From positions 6,718 through 70,717 of the forward strand of contig MHUV01000003.1 in assembly GCA_001823545.1 (NCBI GenBank): 64,000 bases of DNA, read 5' to 3'. A program made the position numbers and the translations under genes. Shown here piece by piece: positions 2,700 through 60,604 of this stretch (its first letter is position 1; every line of letters begins with the position of its first letter). The notes under the pieces were generated by a model. That model had not been told where the DNA came from and did not search any database. It saw nothing but the letters and a program-made list of their open reading frames with translations. The stretch is from Candidatus Yonathbacteria bacterium RIFCSPLOWO2_01_FULL_43_27 (GTDB lineage Bacteria; Patescibacteriota; Minisyncoccia; Phycocordibacterales; UBA1550).

Positions 2700-2775
2700 G
2701 CTGGCTTTAGTTATTTCTTATTAGCGACGTAGAGCAAGTGAAGTGAGAAAGTAGTCTTTCTCACTTCCGAGCCGA
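2700..2775. repeat. Partial copy (3'-terminal ~70 nt, inverted) of the intergenic repeat family
   Basis: ttagcgacgtagagcaagtgaagtgagaaagtagtctttctcacttccgagccgaggaagctaatacgg matches 58150-58220 and the reverse complement of 29045-29115. Contains the hairpin GAAAGTAGTCTTTC region. Confidence 0.55.
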
Positions 2776-2807
2776 GGAAGCTAATACGGATTTCGTGTAT
2801 GTAAAAA

Positions 2808-5021
2808 TCATACGGTTACGAGATCTTTTTCGACACGCTTTAATGACACGGCATTTACCGCAACTATTATTGAAGACACACTCATCAAAAGTGCCGCAAA
2901 TTCTGGACGGAGCATAATGCCAAAGCTAGGATATAGAATTCCTCCAGCAATAGGAATTGCAAGGACATTGTAAATTGAAGCCCAAAAAAGATTCTGTTTC
3001 ATTTTGCGAACTGTTGCTTTGCTTAAGGTGATTGCTCGAAGAATGTCTAATGGGTCTGATTTCATAAGAACAACTTTTGCAGTTTCGATTGCCACGTCCG
3101 TGCCTGCACCAATAGCAATACCCACATCAGATTGAGCGAGCGCGGGTGCGTCGTTGACCCCATCGCCCACCATTGCCGTAAATTTTCCTTCTTCTTGTAA
3201 TTTTTTTACGTAGCTCGCTTTATCCGCAGGTATTACTTCCGCAAACACTCTTTCTATACCAATACGACTTGCCACATTCTCTGCGGTATTTTTATTGTCG
3301 CCGGTAATCATAGCAATCTCAATACCCAAAGCTTTCAAACTCTCAACGGTTTTTATGGCATTGGGTTTTATTGGATCAACTACACCAATCACTGCTTTAA
3401 TGGACCCATCAACAGCGAGAATCATAATCGTCTCCCCTTTTTCCAGAAACTCATTTATTTTTTGTTCCAGTATACCCAGAGCAATACCCTGTTCCTTCAT
3501 AAGTCTCACGGTACCGATAAGTAGTTGTTTTCCGTCGACAACGGCCTTTACTCCCAACCCTGAAAGATTTTTAAATTTATCAACCGACTCTGGCAATATA
3601 AGGTCGCGTTTCTTAAGCTCATCGAGCACGGCACCAGCCAAAGGGTGAGATGATTTCGCCTCTGCCGCGCCGACGAGGCGAAGTGCTTCGTCTGCACTAA
3701 AACCATCCACGGTAGCGATGTCAGTTACTTTTGATTTTCCTTCGGTAAGTGTCCCAGTTTTATCAAGGACAATTGCTTGGATTTTTGAAACTTGTTCTAG
3801 TGTGGGAGCATCTTTTATAAGAATATTATGTTTTGCCCCAAGGCCAGTACCGACAGCTACGGCAGTCGGCGTGGCAAGTCCAAGTGCGTCGGGGCAAGCA
3901 ATGACAACCGTAGCAATAGCAAAAGAGAGAGCCAAAAGGAGCGGTGAACCAACTATAAAATACCAAATTATAAATACCAAAAGACCTGATCCTACCGCCA
4001 CAATGACCAAGTACTTTGCAAACCTATCGGCGATTCTTTGTCCCGGAGCTTTTGAATTCTGCGCTTCTTCAACCATCGTTACAATTCGTGCAAGAGCAGT
4101 GTCCTTGCCGATTTTTGTTGCCTTAAATTTCACCGATCCGGTAGTGTTGATTGATCCCCCAATGACCTGGTCCCCAATCCTTTTAGCCGTAGGGATCGAT
4201 TCTCCAGTAACCAAAGATTCGTCTATGGCAGTTTCTCCCTCAATAACCTCACCATCAACAGGAACCTTGTCTCCTGGCTTAAGAATGATGATGTCACCAA
4301 GTTGTATATCGGATGTGGAAACCATCATCTCTCTGCCATCTTTAAAGATTCTGGCTTGAGGCGGTACGAGATTAAAAAGTGCCTGAAGAGCGTCTGTTGT
4401 CCCGCGACGAGATCTCATTTCCATCCAGTGACCGAACAAGACGAACGTGATAAGCATGGCAGCCGCTTCGTAATAGGAATCGGTACTTCCCATAAGAGTA
4501 AGCAGGATACTGAAGCCATACGCTGCAGTAATGCCGACGGCAATGAGTACCGCCATATTCAGTATTTTATTTTTCAACGCAAAATAAGTTGAATAGAGGA
4601 AAATCCATCCGGAATAAAAAAATACCGGTGTTGTTAACATAAAGAGGAGCCACGGTAAAGGAATTGGAGATGCCAGATCAATCCTTAAAAACTCGGTGCC
4701 TAAAGGCGAATACAAAATTATAGGAATGGTGAGGATAAGCGAGAAGAAGAATTTATTCCGAATATCTATCTCCATGAGGCGAGCCATTTCCCGACCTGCA
4801 AGTCCGGTATGATCCATGCCCATCGTCATCGACATACTCATCTTGAACTTTCCCCAGAATCCCATCTTCGATATATCGCCCATTGCGTGCCCAGAATGGG
4901 CACTATGCTTTTCCTGATCATCTTTCTTAACAAGCTTCATCCCACATTTCGGGCACGTGCCGAGTTTGCCCGAAACAACCTCAGGATGCATTGGGCAGGT
5001 ATACATTTTGTTTTCTTTCAT
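2808..5021 (-). CDS. copA: Copper-translocating P1B-type ATPase
   Basis: DKTGTLT phosphorylation motif, GDGVNDAPAL, TGES-like actuator, membrane CP(D)-ALGLATP motif (IACPDALGLATP). N-terminal metal-binding region YTCPMHPEV...CPKCGM followed by a His/Met-rich linker. Confidence 0.9.
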   Translation of the reverse strand: MKENKMYTCPMHPEVVSGKLGTCPKCGMKLVKKDDQEKHSAHSGHAMGDISKMGFWGKFKMSMSMTMGMDHTGLAGREMARLMEIDIRNKFFFSLILTIPIILYSPLGTEFLRIDLASPIPLPWLLFMLTTPVFFYSGWIFLYSTYFALKNKILNMAVLIAVGITAAYGFSILLTLMGSTDSYYEAAAMLITFVLFGHWMEMRSRRGTTDALQALFNLVPPQARIFKDGREMMVSTSDIQLGDIIILKPGDKVPVDGEVIEGETAIDESLVTGESIPTAKRIGDQVIGGSINTTGSVKFKATKIGKDTALARIVTMVEEAQNSKAPGQRIADRFAKYLVIVAVGSGLLVFIIWYFIVGSPLLLALSFAIATVVIACPDALGLATPTAVAVGTGLGAKHNILIKDAPTLEQVSKIQAIVLDKTGTLTEGKSKVTDIATVDGFSADEALRLVGAAEAKSSHPLAGAVLDELKKRDLILPESVDKFKNLSGLGVKAVVDGKQLLIGTVRLMKEQGIALGILEQKINEFLEKGETIMILAVDGSIKAVIGVVDPIKPNAIKTVESLKALGIEIAMITGDNKNTAENVASRIGIERVFAEVIPADKASYVKKLQEEGKFTAMVGDGVNDAPALAQSDVGIAIGAGTDVAIETAKVVLMKSDPLDILRAITLSKATVRKMKQNLFWASIYNVLAIPIAGGILYPSFGIMLRPEFAALLMSVSSIIVAVNAVSLKRVEKDLVTV

Positions 5022-7986: not shown

Positions 7987-8009
7987 TTTTTTATAGTTAA
8001 TCTGCTCAT

Positions 8010-8100
8010 AAAAGCGGTAGGTACCACAGGGTAAGCCACCCTTGTATTATTCCATTACATGGACGGTACACCTTGTCGCTCATAGTAAAAAAGCTCACTA
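8010..8100. repeat. Short member of the intergenic repeat family
   Basis: Begins aaaagcggta (the 5' terminus shared with 28841 and the rc of 58320). 8039..8073 is 35/35 identical to 28923..28957. Ends tgtcgctcatag (compare ctacgtcgctaatag). Confidence 0.55.
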
Positions 8101-8615: not shown

Positions 8616-9791
8616 TTACATTATTTGATCAATAATTTTTGTTTTTAAATTTTCCACTTTTCTCGTCTTTATCCGTTTAATAAACGGATACTCAACATAG
8701 CGATATGTGAGAGAAGAAACAGATATTGTTATAACCCCGCTAAACAGTATGAGAGACCAAAATACTGTTGGTGAAATTGATGTTATCGGATAAAAATAAT
8801 CTATAGAATTTAGTATCGCAAAAAGCATGATGCTGTGAATCAGGTACACACTGTAACTTATAGTTCCTAGAAACTTTGCCACCTCTGTCTTTAATAAACC
8901 AAAAAGATCAGCACCATATACAAAAGATAAGAATACTCCAAGTGAAATAAAGTATTGGGTAAAAGAATAAGGTTTGTAGCTGATAAAATATATGAGAACC
9001 ACTCCTAAGATGGGCACCAGTGATGATATCGACTTTTGGAAAAATTTAATTTCTGGATATTTTTTATATATATGAGCAGCCATGATGCCGAATAAAAATA
9101 TAGCCCAATATCCTCTGAGTGGAGAGGAGAGAGCAAAGAAGGCTAACGGCAGTGCCATGATGAACATCTTCTTGCCTTTAAGAGAAACCGCAAGAATAGG
9201 AAGCATAAGATAAAACACCCATTCAAAAGCCAACGTCCAATGAATACCTGCGTTTATGGGAAGAACACTTATATTGTTAACAGAGGTAGTGGTAATAAGT
9301 CCGAGAGAAAGGAAGGAGAGGATACCTTTTACTGTTTCTCTGATATCTATATCTAACCCTGATTGTATGAAAATTGAAAAAATAATTATTCCCGCGGTAA
9401 AAAGATACATCGGAGCGAGACGCAAAAACCTACTTCGGTATAAAGCTCCTGCATCTATGTCTCCTTTTTGCGCAATAGCTTTTGACCAATATAGGAAACT
9501 TGTAAGAATAAAAAACAAAATAACGGCTTCCCCACCTAAGTGTCTATAAAATCTGATAGGAACAATTTCCCAAACACCACTCTGAAAATAAAAATGACTT
9601 GTCACCGCATGCTGAAAAAATACATTTATTGCTAAAAAACCTCGGAGGCCATCAAGGGACTCAAATCTGCCTCGCTCCTCCTCCTTTATAATCTTTCTGT
9701 AAAATGGAAAATTTCTTACCAATAAAATACTAAATCCCACAAGGATCCCTAAAATCAAAAAATATATCCATATCGTAGTAAAATCAAGCAT
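8616..9791 (-). CDS. Acyltransferase family 3 (OafA/YrhL-like) integral membrane protein
   Basis: ESLDGLRGFLAINVFFQH motif characteristic of acyltransferase_3. About 10 predicted TM segments. Confidence 0.8.
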   Translation of the reverse strand: MLDFTTIWIYFLILGILVGFSILLVRNFPFYRKIIKEEERGRFESLDGLRGFLAINVFFQHAVTSHFYFQSGVWEIVPIRFYRHLGGEAVILFFILTSFLYWSKAIAQKGDIDAGALYRSRFLRLAPMYLFTAGIIIFSIFIQSGLDIDIRETVKGILSFLSLGLITTTSVNNISVLPINAGIHWTLAFEWVFYLMLPILAVSLKGKKMFIMALPLAFFALSSPLRGYWAIFLFGIMAAHIYKKYPEIKFFQKSISSLVPILGVVLIYFISYKPYSFTQYFISLGVFLSFVYGADLFGLLKTEVAKFLGTISYSVYLIHSIMLFAILNSIDYFYPITSISPTVFWSLILFSGVITISVSSLTYRYVEYPFIKRIKTRKVENLKTKIIDQIM

Positions 9792-9879
9792 CTAGGAATG
9801 TTGGTATCTTTTCAAGAAATATATTATAACAAATAAACACCGAATTGTATCGATGATTATTTGTTTAAATGCTGATTTA

Positions 9880-10377
9880 GTTGAGATACGGTGAAGTCTC
9901 GGTCAAGCGCTCGCTCGTCGCCTTATTTGCGGTAAATGAATCGGTCACAGATATTTTGTTCGCCCCTCGGTGAAGTCTCGGCCAAGAACATTTTTCCTCG
10001 TCGTCACTCGAAAAATTTCTCGGCCCTGCTCGGATGACCCATTCTACTGAATGGGTGCCCATCCTCGCTTTCGATTCCTTCACCTACCACGCAAACAATC
10101 GTCGCTCAATGCTCTGCATTGTTCTCCTTGTTTGCGGTAAATGAATCGGTCACAGATATTTTGTTCGTCGTCACTCATAAGATTCCGCGGTCACAGGTAT
10201 TTTTCTGCTGAAAAATCCCGCGACCCCTCCTCGCGCCGTCGCGCTCCGGCCTTGCGAAAGCTCCAAGTATTCGCTTTCTCACCCGGCTCGTGGTCTCGCG
10301 TGTTCGCTCGACAACACTCCGCCCTTCGATTCCTTCACCGTCGTAAAGCGTTGCTTTACGATACCCCTCGTTCACTG
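9880..10377. repeat. GC-rich repeat-rich non-coding island downstream of tRNA-Trp
   Basis: Exact 37-nt direct repeat tttgcggtaaatgaatcggtcacagatattttgttcg at 9926..9962 and 10131..10167. cggtgaagtctcgg at 9889 and 9968. cgtcgtcactc at 10000 and 10166. Inverted copies of the tRNA-Trp 3' end (ttcgattccttcacc) at 10069..10084 and 10325..10340. Hairpin cgtaaagc-gtt-gctttacg at 10342..10360. Confidence 0.6.
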
Positions 10378-10448
10378 CGGGCGGTGAAGGAATCGAACCC
10401 TCGACATCGGTTTTGGAGACCGAAGTTATACCATTTAACTAACCGCCC
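10378..10448 (-). tRNA. trnW: tRNA-Trp (anticodon CCA)
   Basis: Reverse complement GGGCGGT-TA-GTTA-AATGGTA-TAAC-T-TCGGT-CTCCAAA-ACCGA-TGTC-GAGGG-TTCGATT-CCTTC-ACCGCCC-G gives a full cloverleaf of 71 nt. CCA is not encoded. Confidence 0.85.
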
Positions 10449-27660: not shown

Positions 27661-28833
27661 ATGCCACACCATCCCGCAAAAAAAACAATGCTCCTTCTTG
27701 TGTATCTTGCAAGTTTTCTTTATTCGTTCCACTACGCACTCCCCCTCTATATCGAATCGTCATTCATTGCCCAGTTTCTTTCCACAGAAGAAATGATTGG
27801 CGTTATTTTTTCTATTGCCGCAATCATTTCTGTGGTAAGTATTTTTTTCTTTCCGAGAGTTCTTCGAAAATTTGGAAATTATCGTACCACGCTTGCAATT
27901 ATGGGGCTGGAAATTGCAACCCTTCTTTCGCTGGTGGCATTTTCAATACCGCTTGTTGTGGTGGGTCTCTTTATAGTACACCAAGCACTCCTTAGTCTTA
28001 TATTTTTAAACCTCGATACTTTTGTAGAGTCATACTCAGACAACCAGTCAACAGGAAGCATCCGTGGTGTTTTTATGACGGTTCTCAATATCGCGATAGC
28101 GATTGCGCCATTCCTTGCGGGACTTATGCTTACGGACCACGATTTCTGGAAAGTCTATCTCGCGGGAGCAATATTTATGTCCCTTTGCTTTCTGGTGATT
28201 GCGAAAAATTTTAAACACTACATTGACCCACAATACCTCGTGCCAAAGTTTAAAGATACAATAAAAACGGTGCTGAAAAGCCACGACCTTCATTCTGTCA
28301 TCTTTCTTCATTTCCTGCTCGCCTTCTTTTTTTCATGGATGGTAATTTATACACCTATCTATCTCAATAAGCACATTGGCATACCTATGAGTGATATCTT
28401 GAGCGTCATCATTCCTGTAGCACTCCTTCCCTTCATCTTTTTTGAAGCAATATTAGGCAGAATTGCGGACACGAAACTGGGAGAAAAGGAAATCGTTACT
28501 ATGGGGTTCCTTTTGATGGCAGTTGCCACCATGGGACTTTCGTGGATCACCTCAACCAGTGTTGTAGTATGGGCAGTTGCACTCCTTATTACCCGCATTG
28601 GCGCGAGCGCTGTAGAGTCTATGATTGAGAGTTATTTTTATAAAAAAGTAGGCCCCGAAGAAATCAATCTCGTAACCTTTATGCGTATGGTACGCGGAAG
28701 CGCTTATATTGTCGGACCACTTCTTGGCTCGCTCGTACTTTCGTTCATCAATTTCCGCTTCCTCTTTTTTACGCTTGGAATTATCGTTCTTACCAGTATC
28801 CCCTACACGCTCACGATCAAGGATACTAAATAA
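27661..28833 (+). CDS. MFS transporter
   Basis: 12 predicted TM helices in a 6+6 arrangement. Confidence 0.8.
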   Translation: MPHHPAKKTMLLLVYLASFLYSFHYALPLYIESSFIAQFLSTEEMIGVIFSIAAIISVVSIFFFPRVLRKFGNYRTTLAIMGLEIATLLSLVAFSIPLVVVGLFIVHQALLSLIFLNLDTFVESYSDNQSTGSIRGVFMTVLNIAIAIAPFLAGLMLTDHDFWKVYLAGAIFMSLCFLVIAKNFKHYIDPQYLVPKFKDTIKTVLKSHDLHSVIFLHFLLAFFFSWMVIYTPIYLNKHIGIPMSDILSVIIPVALLPFIFFEAILGRIADTKLGEKEIVTMGFLLMAVATMGLSWITSTSVVVWAVALLITRIGASAVESMIESYFYKKVGPEEINLVTFMRMVRGSAYIVGPLLGSLVLSFINFRFLFFTLGIIVLTSIPYTLTIKDTK

Positions 28834-28840
28834 AAGCGGT

Positions 28841-29115
28841 ATTTACCCCGAGGCAAAGCCCCGGTCAAAATGTGTTCGCTTCGCTCACCAATTTACCGCC
28901 CCAGAGGGGCAGGGTATTCAACCCTTGTATTATTCCATTACATGGACGGTACACCTTTTGGATTTTCTTTTCGTGATTACACGCAATAAAATCTCAAAAG
29001 GTCTTGCGAAGCTCCATGTATTCGCTTCTCACCTCGGCTCCCTGGCCGACTGCTGTCAGCGGGTTAGGCGGAAATGAGAAAGATTACTTTCTCATTTCAC
29101 TCGCTCTACGTCGCT
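28841..29115. repeat. Full-length (long variant) copy of the intergenic GC-hairpin repeat family
   Basis: Termini aaaagcggtatttacc ... ctctacgtcgctaatag. Hairpins CCGGGGC-ttt-GCCCCGG (as its complement here), CCGCCCC-aga-GGGGC(A/G)GG and GAAATGAGAAAG-attac-TTTCTCATTTC. Versus 58150-58320 (inverted) it carries a ~130-bp internal insertion that includes the 35-mer shared with 8039. Confidence 0.65.
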
Positions 29116-29120
29116 AATAG

Positions 29121-30122
29121 TTACCTACGACGTATTTTTTGAGTGACCCATTTTAACGCGCGGTACAAAATATAAAATACCACTACATAAAAAATAACCT
29201 TATATTCAAAAAAATACTGCAGTACCGCGAGCACAAAATAACTTACGTACGCAAGAGGTTTCTCTGCTTCTGTACGCACCGTCTCGGTAAATGGTTTTTC
29301 CTTTTGAGTCGAGATTGCCTCTGTAGGAATACGATTACGCTCATTAAGTGCATCTATTTCTTTTGATTTTTCTTCTTTTGCAAGTTTAAATTGATATCCT
29401 TCACTAATACGAAAACGCTCAACAATATTTGAACCTGATGAAACTGCTTCTTTTATTGGTTCAGGAATTTTTGAGTCCACTACACTCATAGCGTTCTCTA
29501 CGACGCCTAGATTTTTAGTTCCCGTTGCGGTCTGCGCGCGCGCTTCAATAAGTTTTAGCTCTTTATCATCCGAAACACCATTACCATCAGAATCTTTTTT
29601 AAGTGGGTCGGTGCTATTTTTAATTTCATCAATATCTGAAACATTATCGTTATCATCATCCAGATCATCAGTATTTCCTATACCATCTCGGTCAGTATCA
29701 AAATCAATAGCGAGTTCATTCTTTGCCGTTTCTATGTTTTCAAGCACAATAGGTCGTTTTTTCCCTCCCGTACCAACCGCATGCACCCCAGAAAGGCGCG
29801 CGGTGATGGTATGCTTGCCGTCCTTTGCAACCCAATCAACCCACACATCACGGGCGCGACCTCCGCTCGCAAGAGAAAAATCTGTTTTACCAATTAAAAT
29901 TCCGTTATCTAGAAATTCAACAACGCCAATCAAGTCCTCTGAGCTTCCATTGAAAATAATGGTATAAATGCGAATACTATCCCCTGAGAAAAAAGGACTT
30001 CGTGAGTACCAAATATTAGAGGGGGCAAAGCCGGCATTTTTTAAAGGAGTATCAACTGCGTATACAGGAACCACGGTCGCAACAAAAAATAAAAGAATTG
30101 CAAAAAAAGATTTCATAACCAA
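29121..30122 (-). CDS. Secreted protein with thrombospondin-type-3-like Ca-binding Asp repeats and a C-terminal TM anchor
   Basis: Signal peptide MKSFFAILLFFVATVVPVYA. DTDRDGIGNTDDLDDDNDNVSDIDE...DSDGNGVSDDKE match the DxDxDG calcium-binding repeat. Hydrophobic C-terminus. Confidence 0.55.
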   Translation of the reverse strand: MVMKSFFAILLFFVATVVPVYAVDTPLKNAGFAPSNIWYSRSPFFSGDSIRIYTIIFNGSSEDLIGVVEFLDNGILIGKTDFSLASGGRARDVWVDWVAKDGKHTITARLSGVHAVGTGGKKRPIVLENIETAKNELAIDFDTDRDGIGNTDDLDDDNDNVSDIDEIKNSTDPLKKDSDGNGVSDDKELKLIEARAQTATGTKNLGVVENAMSVVDSKIPEPIKEAVSSGSNIVERFRISEGYQFKLAKEEKSKEIDALNERNRIPTEAISTQKEKPFTETVRTEAEKPLAYVSYFVLAVLQYFFEYKVIFYVVVFYILYRALKWVTQKIRRR

Positions 30123-51791: not shown

Positions 51792-51898
51792 TAAATAGAA
51801 GCGGTATTTATCCTGTGGCAGGTCCCCGAACAAAAAAGATTACATTCTTTTGTCTTTGCCAACGACGCAAATTTACTAATTCGTCTACGTCGCTCATA
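51792..51898. repeat. Probable divergent member of the intergenic repeat family
   Basis: Starts agaagcggtatttatcc (compare aaaagcggtatttacc) and ends ctacgtcgctcataac (compare ctacgtcgctaatag). The internal sequence is unrelated. Confidence 0.4.
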
Positions 51899-57751: not shown

Positions 57752-58114
57752 CTAAAAGTGGTTTATCAAAAGAAGAATACCGATAATAGAGGTAACCACC
57801 ACGGTAAAAAGAACATACCCTGCCATCGTATCTTTTATCTTGCCAATCACCGGGTCAAAACTTGGTTCTATCTTGTTGCAAATGTCTTCAATTGCAGTAT
57901 TTACAATTTCCGCAGAAAGTACCGCGCCAATACACCCAAGCAGGATGACCCACTCAATAATTGAAAAGCGAAGAATGCCCGCACCTACGACCAAGACAAG
58001 TCCGATAACCAATTCGATACGAAAACTGAGTTCTTCGCGCCATACTGTGCGAAGTCCGTTCATTGCCCACCCAAAGCTCTTGATAAGTTTGTTCATCATT
58101 AATAATAATACCAA
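57752..58114 (-). CDS. dgkA: Diacylglycerol / undecaprenol kinase, prokaryotic DgkA family
   Basis: 120 aa with three TM helices; WREELSFRIE and AEIVNTAIE motifs. Confidence 0.7.
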   Translation of the reverse strand: MVLLLMMNKLIKSFGWAMNGLRTVWREELSFRIELVIGLVLVVGAGILRFSIIEWVILLGCIGAVLSAEIVNTAIEDICNKIEPSFDPVIGKIKDTMAGYVLFTVVVTSIIGILLLINHF

Positions 58115-58149
58115 AAACCACCTTCGAACAAAAGGTGGCTCTCGGTATG

Positions 58150-58320
58150 TTTATTAGCGACGTAGAGCGAGTGAAATGAGAAAGTAATCTTTCTTATTTC
58201 CGAGCCGAGAAGCCAATACAAGGGTATAATACCCCGCCCCTCTGGGGCGGTAAATGTGTGAGAAGCGAATACATTTTGACCGGGGCTTTGCCCCGGGGTA
58301 AATACCGCTTTTATCTATAC
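58150..58320. repeat. Short-variant copy (inverted relative to 28841) of the intergenic GC-hairpin repeat family
   Basis: ttagcgacgtagagcgagtgaaatgagaaagtaatctttcttatttc...ccgcccctctggggcgg...gaccggggctttgccccgg...taccgctttt. Confidence 0.65.
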
Positions 58321-58326
58321 TCGATA

Positions 58327-60120
58327 TTAATTCTCTTGTGTTTCAATTGGTTCAACAATCGATGATGGAGCGGTCGTCGGAGCAACAAACGTTCCTGTTT
58401 CTCCGGGTGGTGGTGGCATCACGGGAGGAGGATTCCACTCTCCAGAAGGCATAGTACTTCCTTCTTTATAAAACGGCATCTCGCCATCACGCGGTGGCAT
58501 ACCTTCATCACCTATCGGCGTACCATTATACGGTGGTGGTGGTGGCATGTTTCCATACTGAATATCTCTTTGCATATCAAAGGGTATCCCTTGCGCGCGA
58601 GGGTCCATCATTGGTCTGTCCTGATATTGAGGATCTATTAGTCTTCGTGGATCGAATTGAGGCCTTTCTCGTGGATGGAATAAAGATGAGGAAGTTCCCT
58701 GCCCTCCCTCAAATTTCGGAGGCATCATCTGCCCACGAAAATCCTGCGGTGGCATGTTTCCGCGCGGTCCTTCAAATTCACGCATACAAGTACTTACCGC
58801 TTGCCCGATAGCACCATCTTTACCGATCTGTGCAGTTCCTAATTCACGAAGAGCATCCTCGCCAACTTTATCTTTTACACATTCCTCAACCTGAGGAGGG
58901 AACATTTTTCCTTGGGGACGACCTTGCATAAAGGGCGCACCTCCACGAGGTGATGAAGTACTGCCCCCTTGTATGAACGGCACACCAAAACCTTCTCCGT
59001 CAGGACGCATCATTCCCGGGAATCCCATTCCTTGTGGCGCACCCTCTCTTTGTTCGTTCGGAGCACCTAAAACGCTTTCAAAACAACCGCGCATCTTCTC
59101 GCCAAAATCACGTTTGGGTGTTTGTCTGCCTGCGATCATTTGATCAAGAGCATCCTTCCCGACGACTCCCTCAAGACATTGTTTAATCTCGGCAGGTGCG
59201 TTCACAATCCCCTCTCTAAAACGCGTAAGACCCTCTTCCATCCGCGCTTTATCTTCAGGTCTGACAAGATCGTGTTCTTCAGCAAACTGCATACATTCGT
59301 CTTGATGTTCACTGCAGTATGTGTCGCATTGTTCCTTACCACGACATCCGCCAGGACCTTTACCACCAGTCTTTTTGATCATCTCTAAATCTGAGGGTGG
59401 AATGAGGTCATTCTCCTCACCGAATTTCAAACACTTCTCCATTATTTCATCACTTACAGGGTTCTCACATTGCTTAAAATCTTTCGGTGATTTGAAGGGT
59501 GCCTTTCCTTCTTCAATAAGTTTAAAAACCTTCTCGGCCTGAGCTCGGTCAACATGTGGAGGTAATAACCCCGCCTTTTCTGCAAACGCAAAACATGCAC
59601 GCGCAATGCCAACATTTTTTGGTTCTTCGCACATTTGTTTACACGACTCACCACTTGTACATCCTTCAGGTAGCGCCACACCACCCGCGAGTGCCTTCAC
59701 TACTTTTTCCGCTTCTTCAAGCTCCTGCCCTTTAAGAAGTCCGTGTGATTTACCGTACGTGACACATTCATTCATATTCTCCGGAGTGTCACAATAAGTA
59801 CGACAGCTTTTCTCCGGATCAGCCGTATTCGTCGCGCAATTACCAGGACCACCATCTTTCATGGCGATCTCTTTGCGGTCCATGCGCTCTTTTTGTTTCT
59901 CTTTTGCACTACCGACACCGTACGAGGCGGCAAAATCTTCACATGCATTTTGATGTTCGGAGACATCACAATATGCTTTACATGAAGTTTTGTCGGTACA
60001 TCCCCCAAGTTCAGTAATCGGGTACTCTATATCGAAAATAGATTTTGCGTATGCTGTCGTGGCGAACGCAGCAATCACGACAAACGAGCCAACAAACAAT
60101 TTATTTGAAAGGATTTTCAT
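58327..60120 (-). CDS. Secreted protein with 4-5 tandem ~45-aa Cys modules and a Pro/Gly/Met-rich low-complexity C-terminal half
   Basis: Signal peptide. Modules GGCTDKTSCKAYCDVSEHQNACEDFAASYG, GNCATNTADPEKSCRTYCDTPENMNECVTYGKSHGLL, EGCTSGESCKQMCEEPKNVGIARACFAFAEKAGLL, GGCRGKEQCDTYCSEHQDECMQFAEEHDL. Then PGMM/PPPP-rich sequence. Confidence 0.55.
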   Translation of the reverse strand: MKILSNKLFVGSFVVIAAFATTAYAKSIFDIEYPITELGGCTDKTSCKAYCDVSEHQNACEDFAASYGVGSAKEKQKERMDRKEIAMKDGGPGNCATNTADPEKSCRTYCDTPENMNECVTYGKSHGLLKGQELEEAEKVVKALAGGVALPEGCTSGESCKQMCEEPKNVGIARACFAFAEKAGLLPPHVDRAQAEKVFKLIEEGKAPFKSPKDFKQCENPVSDEIMEKCLKFGEENDLIPPSDLEMIKKTGGKGPGGCRGKEQCDTYCSEHQDECMQFAEEHDLVRPEDKARMEEGLTRFREGIVNAPAEIKQCLEGVVGKDALDQMIAGRQTPKRDFGEKMRGCFESVLGAPNEQREGAPQGMGFPGMMRPDGEGFGVPFIQGGSTSSPRGGAPFMQGRPQGKMFPPQVEECVKDKVGEDALRELGTAQIGKDGAIGQAVSTCMREFEGPRGNMPPQDFRGQMMPPKFEGGQGTSSSLFHPRERPQFDPRRLIDPQYQDRPMMDPRAQGIPFDMQRDIQYGNMPPPPPYNGTPIGDEGMPPRDGEMPFYKEGSTMPSGEWNPPPVMPPPPGETGTFVAPTTAPSSIVEPIETQEN

Positions 60121-60358
60121 ATTCGTTTTTGAAAGGATTAGTCTTTTCTAAAGGATTCACGGCAGGGACTGCAGCAGTGGCAGGATTGGTCTCTGGCGCA
60201 ACAGAAAGAGTATTTTCAACGACCTGTTCTATCGCTTGCGTGGTGTCGAGAGCTTGCTCTCTGGCTTGCTGTGTTGGACGCATAACCGTAAACCAGTACG
60301 CGACCCCAACGATTGCGATAAGGATTGCAACGATTTCTATAATCTTTTTTGTATTCAT
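60101..60358 (-). CDS. Small single-TM protein
   Basis: MNTKKIIEIVAILIAIVGVAYWF...; C-terminal NPFK repeats. Start chosen at the internal ATG to avoid the long upstream overlap. Confidence 0.3.
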   Translation of the reverse strand: MNTKKIIEIVAILIAIVGVAYWFTVMRPTQQAREQALDTTQAIEQVVENTLSVAPETNPATAAVPAVNPLEKTNPFKNEYENPFK

Positions 60359-60518
60359 ATTTTCATTAAAAGTGCTTGTGTCTAGTAATACCGTATATTG
60401 TATCGCCAATGCGGAAGATATGCGAGGATCGTTGTCCACACCCCACCACCCACCATCGGCAAAGTCATACAAGATGGTTGCATTTTTAGTGAATTTTAGT
60501 ATTATACCTATTACATAT

Positions 60519-60591
60519 TCCGTGATAGCTCAGTCGGTAGAGCGCCTCGCTGTTAACGAGGATGTCCCAGGTTCGAGCCCTGGTCACGGAG
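60519..60591 (+). tRNA. trnN: tRNA-Asn (anticodon GTT)
   Basis: TCCGTGA-TA-GCTC-AGTCGGTA-GAGC-G-CCTCG-CTGTTAA-CGAGG-ATGTC-CCAGG-TTCGAGC-CCTGG-TCACGGA-G; 73 nt. Confidence 0.9.
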
Positions 60592-60604
60592 CAAAAACAG
60601 TTAT

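Follow-up and report, generated by a model that had tools for sequence, protein, structure and literature searches.

In a 64-kb stretch of a Candidatus Yonathbacteria genome (the window; 42.5% GC) we found copies of a mobile element that is small, structured and free of genes. It belongs to an undescribed family that is widespread in Patescibacteria, the candidate phyla radiation. These elements insert precisely at the trinucleotide (A/G)TA, without inverted repeats, at the ends of genes, and three of their helices show structure-preserving covariation. As to how they move, we favor, with a probability of about one in two, a non-autonomous single-strand-DNA element that is moved in trans by a Y1/HUH transposase and works like the IS200/IS605-derived PATEs or like REPs.

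Copies, empty sites and distribution

Repeat loci in the window were called by direct reading of the sequence and by sensitive BLAST searches of the two main copies against it; loci in other genomes and contigs carry L numbers. The window holds three intact or well-preserved copies and three decayed ones (8011-8084, 51798-51898 and ~10128-10300). An earlier reading made from the DNA letters alone (the sequence-only reading) had listed five repeat loci. All of these are present, with slightly shifted limits, while the decayed member at ~10128-10300 had been overlooked. The genomes of Patescibacteria are among the smallest and most streamlined in bacteria, and in full-text searches we found no report of repeated mobile DNA from this group. 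A selfish element has reached three intact and three decayed copies in 64 kb of this genome.

The long copy (287 nt, 28833-29119, plus strand, written 5'-AAAGCGG...GCTAATA-3') occupies the entire gap between the stop codon of an MFS gene (TAA, 28831-28833) and the stop codon of the convergent gene (29121-29123). The short complete copy (160 nt, 58152-58311, minus strand) lies upstream of dgkA, where it separates the stop codon of a 597-aa gene from the terminator of that gene. It matches the long copy at 91% identity over its first ~100 nt and at 98% over its last 51 nt.

At both places there are relatives in which the site is precisely empty. In L179 and L180, which encode MFS proteins 88-90% identical to that of the window, the MFS and convergent stop codons abut (...ATAG/TTACC); the window reads ...ATA[AAAGCGG...GCTAATA]GTTACC. 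The element stands between the ATA and the G of the relatives' ATAG, and the long copy therefore sits inside a former TAG stop codon, its first A remaking a TAA. Insertion is thus precise enough to fall inside a stop codon. At the second site L182, a 71%-identical relative, has stop-ATAGACAAACATACC-terminator; in the window the 160-nt element lies between ...GATA and AACATACC, which is followed by the same terminator as in L182. The two genes overlap at this site in L183. Because these relatives have precisely empty sites at two window loci, the copies are insertions of a mobile element. A third empty site was sought at copA in relatives, none of which was usable because downstream synteny was missing.

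Several metagenome contigs with the identical MFS gene also stop in or at the element: L058 ends 207 nt past this gene, and L059 ends at it. This agrees with a repeat that breaks metagenome assemblies. The covariance model of the element offers a ready marker for these organisms. Taken together, the precisely empty sites, the lack of coding sequence and of terminal inverted repeats, and the very large size of the family bear out in substance the earlier suggestion of a selfish element like a miniature inverted-repeat transposable element (MITE), REP or BIME.

The position at gene ends could also be explained by a function for the host. A cis element (an mRNA 3' stabilizer, a terminator, an insulator or a protein-binding site) might be kept by selection, with mobility being incidental. 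Strong conservation of the core across distant lineages would fit such a role, and there is a precedent in the enterobacterial REP elements, which have host cis roles and whose associated transposases, the RAYTs, are regarded as domesticated (PMC5581495). However, close relatives lack copies at the same sites with nothing else changed, copies decay in place (8011-8084, 51798-51898 and 10128-10300), and orientation relative to neighboring genes is random (28 same, 29 opposite). Nor are the hairpins terminators. When we looked for intrinsic terminators (a hairpin plus a U-tract) in the element hairpins, none qualified except one marginal 5-bp stem, and the sole convincing terminator (58108-58148, minus strand) is not part of the element and predates it, since the empty site of L182 has it as well. 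We therefore regard a host-serving cis element as quite improbable. The same observations (hairpins without U-tracts, the terminator outside the element, random orientation) speak against the terminator-embedded small RNA that the sequence-only reading had offered as a candidate. A possible internal promoter in the short copy (TTTACC-17-TATTAT, 9/12, 58226-58254, minus strand, directed toward the 3' domain) was rejected, as its score is at chance level and it is not kept in other subfamilies.

The sequence-only reading had held that confinement to the window would refute a repeat family, and copies are far from confined to it. An exact 22-mer from the 3' end, CACTYGCTCTACGTCGCTAATA, occurs at 54 loci in 34 species-representative genomes, and a gapped pattern through the conserved core matches at least 118 metagenome contigs. 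Most of the genomes with the 22-mer carry Patescibacteria labels (Yonath-, Vogel-, Kaiser-, Lloyd-, Doudna- and Komeilibacteria, Parcubacteria/Paceibacterota and many metagenome-assembled genomes (MAGs) labelled Saccharibacteria); three are MAGs labelled Gammaproteobacteria or Planctomycetia. Yonathbacteria, Doudnabacteria and Saccharibacteria are different candidate phyla in the NCBI taxonomy, and a 22-nt stretch is identical across lineages that are labelled in this way. Some of the Saccharibacteria labels may be generic or unreliable, because in one such MAG, CAYIHV01 (L184, CAYIHV010000018.1; also L027), the window's 597-aa Yonathbacteria-type gene has a syntenic homologue with 70% identity.

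Two element patterns had no match in viral contigs, and BLAST gave no match in plasmids and phages. When the window and eight other loci were compared with Rfam at gathering and permissive thresholds, tRNAs alone reached threshold; the best non-tRNA matches scored 10-22 bits against family thresholds of 45-100, so the check that the sequence-only reading had asked for returned no matching family. Full-text literature searches for the element sequence, or for such a repeat in Patescibacteria (as a MITE, REP, structured RNA or IS605), produced nothing relevant, and a paper on tRNA introns in Patescibacteria does not mention such repeats.

Fold, covariation and the junction rule

Copies from other genomes define a minimal unit of ~81-89 nt. 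On the strand written for the long copy, this unit follows (A/G)TA and consists of AA and a hairpin (P1), 1-3 nt, the 5' strand of a helix P0 (TATTAGC), TCCTCGGCTCG, a second hairpin (P2), ACTCGCTCTACGTC and the 3' strand of P0 (GCTAATA), after which comes AA. P0 is a 7-bp helix that closes a large, near-invariant internal loop (TCCTCGGCTCG / ACTCGCTCTACGTC), and this loop bears P2. The sequence of P2 is almost free, yet it nearly always forms a perfect stem of ~12 bp; it is common to the copies within one genome and differs between genomes. The closing helix P0, like the (A/G)TA junction rule described below, had gone unseen in the sequence-only reading.

Compensatory changes, which that reading had proposed to look for, are abundant in P0 and P2. 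Among 95 distinct metagenome copies in the matches listed, P2 showed double-sided changes in 12 of 12 pairs, with 94.5% of cells paired. P0, which the search pattern had left free to vary, showed them in 5 of 7 pairs, with 90.8% of cells paired (examples are TTGGC/GCCAA, CTGGC/GCCAG and TAAGC/GCTTA). None of 500 shuffles matched the observed values, and structures that were slid by 1-3 columns paired in only 38-53% of cells. RNAalifold, given 22 short natural elements, found P0 and P2 de novo and also proposed an invariant 3-bp GGC/GCU helix inside the loop. As for P1, the bases right after (A/G)TA are complementary to those right before P0 in at least nine distinct sequence versions, including AAGGTT/AACCT, TATAGTC/GACTATA, AAACCGG/CCGGTTT and AGATTACC/GGTAATCT, where both strands have changed and are still complementary. 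The support for P1 comes from direct inspection of distinct subfamilies, and the covariance model R1 covers the 3' domain; a whole-element model was not built because MAFFT could not align P1 across subfamilies. R1 found the three intact copies in the window with scores of 85.9 (short copy), 83.0 (the copy at 2719-2786) and 53.4 bits (long copy, 29054-29119, plus strand), at E values from 8e-25 to 3e-14, and nothing above 18 bits in the rest of the window.

The minimum-energy fold of the short copy reproduces the model (z = -4.6), and the long copy also folds stably as RNA (z = -6.9). In the short copy, P1 (AAGCGGTAT.../...ATACCCTT) encloses three small hairpins and is followed by P0 (TATTGGC/GCTAATA), the conserved loops and P2. 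In the 3' domain of the long copy, the model assigns TGTCAGC (29054-29060) as the 5' strand of P0, followed in order by the conserved loop, P2 (GAAATGAGAAAG-ATTA-CTTTCTCATTTC), the loop ACTCGCTCTACGTC and the P0 3' strand GCTAATA; a P0 strand of the family-consensus type, TATTCGC, is found at 29019-29025, upstream of the second of two insertions that distinguish this copy.

Extra hairpin modules that are present in some subfamilies yield the 160- and 287-nt forms of the window. In the larger forms, extra hairpins lie within P1, with loops GCAAGC or GCAGAGC, each then followed by GGTATT. A loop motif, (T)TCGCTTCGCT(C), occurs according to subfamily either at the tip of P2 (L006, L008, L014, L022, L040) or in a hairpin inside P1 (most long copies; 28872-28889 in the window). 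The short form had been described as the long form minus one ~130-bp block. There is indeed additional internal sequence in the long form, but it consists of two separate insertions: a block of ~91 nt (28932-29022, plus strand), which is an imperfect long hairpin with a GTATT direct repeat at its bounds, and a 28-nt hairpin, CCTGGCCGACTGC-TGTC-AGCGGGTTAGG (29041-29068, plus strand), within the 5' conserved loop. The ~91-nt block type is missing from the short form and present in L001, L014, L048, L122 and L164. The three strong GC hairpins of the sequence-only reading all exist, although the third (GAAATGAGAAAG/CTTTCTCATTTC) is AT-rich. With strong covariation in P0 and P2 and hairpin modules gained and lost, the idea of a modular structured nucleic acid holds.

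As had been proposed, the elements have no coding capacity; a short frame that starts at an ATG inside P2 in some copies was rejected because the P2 sequence is not conserved. We also rejected the idea that the conserved 5' loop (CCTCGG) pairs with one strand of the P1a hairpin (CCGAGG), as P1a varies while the loop does not. The invariant 3' loop contains two occurrences of the pentamer TCGCT, and the 5' loop two of CTCGG. One subfamily (L064 ~8700-8900, minus strand, L062, L160 and L024) has an additional domain of like topology, with a helix TATAAT/ATTATA around two loops and a hairpin; these two loops (GCCGAGCGAGGAGC / GTCCGAGCGATGGG) are similar in sequence to the usual 5' loop when the latter is reverse-complemented.

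An (A/G)TA stands directly before the element, and its last three bases are likewise (A/G)TA. Combinations of 5' flank and 3' end were ATA/ATA (~39 copies), GTA/GTA (11), GTA/ATA (9) and ATA/GTA (2), and in subfamilies that end in GTA the flank was GTA in 11 of 13 cases. The flank triplet thus follows the end triplet (Fisher p = 1.5e-5, computed with 41 in the ATA/ATA cell). Downstream of the element, the first base is A in 93% of copies and the next is A in 70%; the junction is (A)RTA^AA, or TTTAY on the complementary strand. Inside the element, the third base of the P0 5' strand is the pairing partner of the purine in the 3' RTA (U-A in 75 sequences and C-G in 15). Since the end purine covaries with an internal base and the flank triplet follows the end triplet, both junction triplets are tied to that internal base by pairing. 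Tandem copies share one ATA (L011, L024, L097, L111). Of the 65 copies whose 5' limit is defined, 11 have an upstream sense open reading frame (ORF; at least 100 codons) that ends with a stop codon TA/A straddling the junction. For the long copy, the junction ATA lies at 28830-28832 (plus strand), and ATA is also the element end (29117-29119); the former is either a 3-nt duplication or the target beside which the element inserts.

If the family were ordinary MITEs, a DDE transposase that duplicates a 3-bp (A/G)TA target site would account for an identical trinucleotide on both sides that is single at empty sites, and the elements are small, non-coding, multi-copy and intergenic as MITEs are. 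Passive target duplication, however, does not predict that junction triplets are linked by pairing to a base within the element. Covariation of the duplicated purine with such a base is unexpected of a duplication derived from the target unless pairing chooses the target. In agreement with the sequence-only reading, terminal inverted repeats are absent: AAAGG... at one end bears no relation to ...CGTCGCTA at the other, and in no subfamily is the 5' end (AAAGCGG, AAAGGTT or AAACCGG) the inverse complement of the 3' end CGTCGCTAATA. It is the structure that is conserved rather than the end sequences, and no DDE transposase was seen near any copy. An ordinary MITE is, in our view, highly improbable.

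How the element may move

In the mechanism that we favor, the element would move as single-stranded DNA by 'peel-and-paste', a reaction for which a Y1 (HUH) tyrosine transposase of IS200/RAYT type would be supplied in trans. The strand complementary to that written for the long copy would be the active one, 5'-TTTAY^TAGC-GAC-GTAG-AGCGAGT-[hairpin]-CCGAGCCGAGGA-GCTARTA-[hairpin P1']-TTTAY^, and insertion would take place 3' of TTTAY. Cleavage and target triplets would be read through pairing with the internal RTA guide and not by the protein, a logic like that of IS608, and the circle junction would have ...CCTTTAY joined to TAGCGACG.... For the host the element would be a selfish passenger, tolerated at gene ends because its ends recreate stop codons. 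If this is correct, the IS200/RAYT world would extend to Patescibacteria, and the element would be a very compact natural case of target choice by pairing.

Two observations bear on which strand folds. Isolated mismatches in 120 unique P2 hairpins were A.C in 39 cases and G.T in 13 (p = 4e-4). Because A.C mismatches become G.T wobbles on the complementary strand, that strand appears to be the one whose folding was tolerated. In loci of 8-12 kb, with GC skew as a proxy, the complementary strand lay on the G-rich strand in 48 of 78 de-duplicated loci (Wilcoxon p = 0.012, binomial p = 0.054); with gene orientation controlled, the intercept had t = -2.4. In IS608 and ISDra2 the active strand is on the lagging-strand template (PMC5027513), and the direction of the skew is weakly suggestive of the same arrangement here. 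The strand that folds and functions is therefore probably not the one written for the long copy but its complement, a point that the sequence-only reading had missed.

Known members of the IS200/IS605 group and their PATEs (IS608 and ISDra2, with TnpA) likewise have no terminal inverted repeats and carry subterminal hairpins at both ends, here P1 and P0/P2. IS608 inserts 3' of TTAC, and its cleavage sites are read by base pairing with guides (PMC3201880, PMC5027513). The short target of our family (TTTAY on the inferred active strand) and the pairing of its cleavage and target triplets with an internal guide resemble this closely, as does the distance from the left cleavage site to the foot of the hairpin, ~18 nt here and 19 nt in IS608 (PMC3201880). 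The presence of Y1 genes in the same lineages and near copies is a further likeness, and there are hints of a strand-specific fold and of a replication-strand bias. There are also clear differences. In the family described here the hairpins vary freely between subfamilies and conservation lies in the unpaired loops; the 7-bp P0 ties the element end to a strand beyond the hairpin; the right-end cleavage is 3-4 nt from its hairpin instead of 10 nt; and no autonomous parent with these ends was found.

The resemblance to REPs is similarly incomplete. By the published definition, a REP begins with the tetranucleotide GT(A/G)G, after which comes a palindrome whose composition varies (PMC3686654). 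Like REPs and REPINs, our element is short, very abundant and intergenic, and if read on the inferred active strand it has an invariant GTAG ahead of a palindrome that is free in composition. Here, however, GTAG is 8 conserved nt away from P2 and lies within a much larger conserved structure, and the elements do not form inverted doublets.

To look for an enzyme, we tested 95 genes directly beside copies for Pfam enrichment and separately clustered all ORFs of 172 loci. Among the 95 adjacent genes only housekeeping families were found, without transposase enrichment. The clustering, on the other hand, revealed a family of ~230 aa in eight loci, representing five independent places, with the motifs CLMPNHFHLL (HUH) and YIHLNP (tyrosine). 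These proteins score 24-40 bits with Pfam Y1_Tnp (cut-off 23). Their best NCBIfam match, and nearest protein family, is the REP-associated tyrosine transposase (REP_Tyr_transpos), although at 34-47 bits they remain below that family's cut-off of 80. The source names are Kaiserbacteria and Patescibacteria. In three of the five independent places an element lies 130-370 nt downstream of the Y1 gene, and the complementary strand is always co-oriented with the gene. By a rough estimate that assumes gene density, this is 3 of 78 observed against ~0.25% expected per copy. A Y1-kind enzyme thus exists in these organisms and, on this rough estimate, is near copies more often than expected by chance; we regard it only as a candidate partner.

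Several results weigh against movement by such an enzyme. The ATA or GTA found on both sides of copies, and once at empty sites, fits a 3-bp duplication equally well. Known IS200/IS605 ends carry similar hairpins bound by one transposase, but P1 and P2 are unrelated; the putative guide is 3' of the large hairpin, whereas that of IS608 is 5'. No Y1 gene is bracketed by the element, and no second copy was found beside the Y1 genes even in an unfiltered model search. Instead, the Y1 genes (L083, L107, L132) are flanked by their own, different palindromes, with a single element nearby on one side, and the 64-kb window has no Y1 gene. Unrelated end hairpins and the lack of a bracketed transposase gene place the element outside both the PATE and the REP families as these are defined. 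As for the strand, P0 shows no wobble asymmetry (G.T 21, A.C 20), and gene orientation partly confounds the bias in GC skew, which is itself weak (binomial p = 0.054). Finally, RNA in place of DNA as the folding molecule is compatible with everything that we computed.

This last point leads to a structured RNA as an alternative, for instance a new small ribozyme or protein-binding RNA, with the internal loop as its catalytic or binding core. It would spread either through RNA, by reverse splicing or retro-mobility, or as an RNA gene that is passed on horizontally. Near-invariant unpaired stretches flanked by helices of free sequence are the classic pattern of ribozymes and riboswitches, the loop motif TCGCTTCGCT shifts between the tip of P2 and the P1 expansions as peripheral elements of large RNAs do, folding is significantly stable for both main copies, and one internal triplet can pair with either junction like the guide sequence of an intron. 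Against it, there was no Rfam match with E up to 10 in the window and up to 5 in L132. Given the lack of a conserved promoter and the random orientation relative to host genes, half of the copies would lack sense transcription. The surroundings of copies showed no reverse transcriptase, and Patescibacteria are reported to lack group II introns (PMC13011429). The GC-skew bias, in addition, is what is expected of single-stranded DNA at a replication fork and not of RNA. For these reasons we think that an RNA is unlikely.

Another possibility is a folded recombination site for a tyrosine or serine site-specific recombinase, similar to integron attC or Xer sites, with crossover within the shared ATA core. 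One core is present on both sides and is shared in tandem arrays, the 3' domain has inverse sequences at its two ends that pair as P0, like the R''/R' boxes of attC, and the central hairpin P2 is variable, being conserved in structure rather than in sequence. On the other hand, P0 (TATTAGC/GCTAATA) provides no attC core (RYYYAAC/GTTRRRY), there are no cassette genes or cassette arrays beside an integrase, and neither an integrase nor any enriched recombinase was seen near the copies, which are dispersed and solitary and occur in both orientations. A recombination site of this kind seems to us very doubtful.

BOX elements of pneumococci, ERIC elements of enterobacteria, Correia elements of Neisseria and RPEs of Rickettsia are likewise small, non-coding, structured and modular, lie at gene ends and can overlap the ends of coding sequences; Correia and ERIC elements differ from the present family in having terminal inverted repeats. 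To our knowledge, none of the four shares sequence with this family, has been reported from Patescibacteria or has a guide-paired junction.

Beyond the IS200/RAYT-like mechanism that we prefer, it could be speculated, more tentatively, that the ~80-nt core is a new self-guiding element, in which one internal triplet and its neighbors select both the element's own end and its target by pairing. The near-invariant 25-nt loop would then be a new catalytic core or the substrate of an enzyme family specific to Patescibacteria, and the family would be a superfamily apart from IS200/IS605 and REP/RAYT, possibly exchanged horizontally between candidate phyla. We consider this possible but not likely.

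Remaining copies and neighboring sequence

The third intact copy in the window comprises the 3' domain (~68 nt, 2719-2786, minus strand; 92% identity). Its P0 is TATTAGC/GCTAATA, and its P2 (GAAGTGAGAAAG/CTTTCTCACTTC) differs from that of the long copy by a compensatory A-T to G-C change. This copy may also have a short P1 (GATTTT/GAAATC), with which it would reach ~2807 and overlap the copA stop codon.

Among the decayed copies, that at 8011-8084 (plus strand) is an internally deleted derivative of the long form, with ATA directly before it (8008-8010). It begins with AAAGCGGTAGGTACC..., ends with ...GTCGCTCATA and was not detected by R1. The identical core block that had been noted here is real and measures 37 nt (8038-8074, identical to 28921-28957), not the 35/35 first given. 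At 51798-51898 (plus strand), again directly preceded by ATA (51795-51797), only the termini of a degenerate copy are recognizable (5' GAAGCGGTATTTATCC..., 77% over 40 nt; 3' ...TCTACGTCGCTCATA, 15/16). The fragment at ~10128-10300 (plus strand; TTTTTCTGCTGAAAAATCCCGC...CTTGCGAAAGCTCCAAGTATTCGCTTTCTCACCCGGCTCG) was recognized by BLAST (88% over 43 nt) and by alignment with L122, to the interior of whose long variant it is homologous. Its P2 and 3' end are gone, and it adjoins a tRNA gene (10378-10448, minus strand). No convincing gene was seen between this tRNA and the gene starting at 9791 (minus strand), a stretch of ~590 nt (9792-10377). The same stretch contains an inverted copy, GATTCCTTCACCG, of the 3' part of the tRNA (10325-10340 versus 10383-10395), which could pair with the end of the tRNA gene.

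Y1 genes are associated with a second, much smaller palindromic repeat (ATATCGACCTACGAGGTCGATAT and relatives), which clusters around the gene in L132 (8853-8875, 9050-9073, 9588-9610 and 9659-9682) and is also found in L176, L101, L083 and L110. One copy lies in frame inside a Y1 gene (...SIDLRGRYE...). L101 corresponds to the L132 locus without the Y1 gene, with the breakpoint at one of the palindromes that flank it. This smaller repeat looks like a separate REP-like family of Kaiserbacteria-type genomes.

The genes that flank the window copies were confirmed by Pfam as SNase/copper P-type ATPase, beta-propeller protein, MFS, GH15 and DAGK. Upstream of the homologue of the 597-aa gene, L182 (1-1570) and L183 (37-1575) encode a large serine recombinase (Resolvase/Recombinase/Zn_ribbon_recom), and L183 also encodes an Mrr-type nuclease. 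The corresponding region of the window (~60100-60600) has a tRNA gene (60519-60591, plus strand), and the difference may reflect an integrated element that some strains have and others lack. The copper P-type ATPase CopA (2811-5021, minus strand) matches at 100% identity a protein named from a Candidatus Yonathbacteria bacterium (RIFCSPLOWO2_01). It is 85-89% identical to proteins named from Nomura-, Kaiser- and Moranbacteria and other candidate phyla, while its downstream neighbors vary among relatives, which suggests a recent horizontal spread of this gene.

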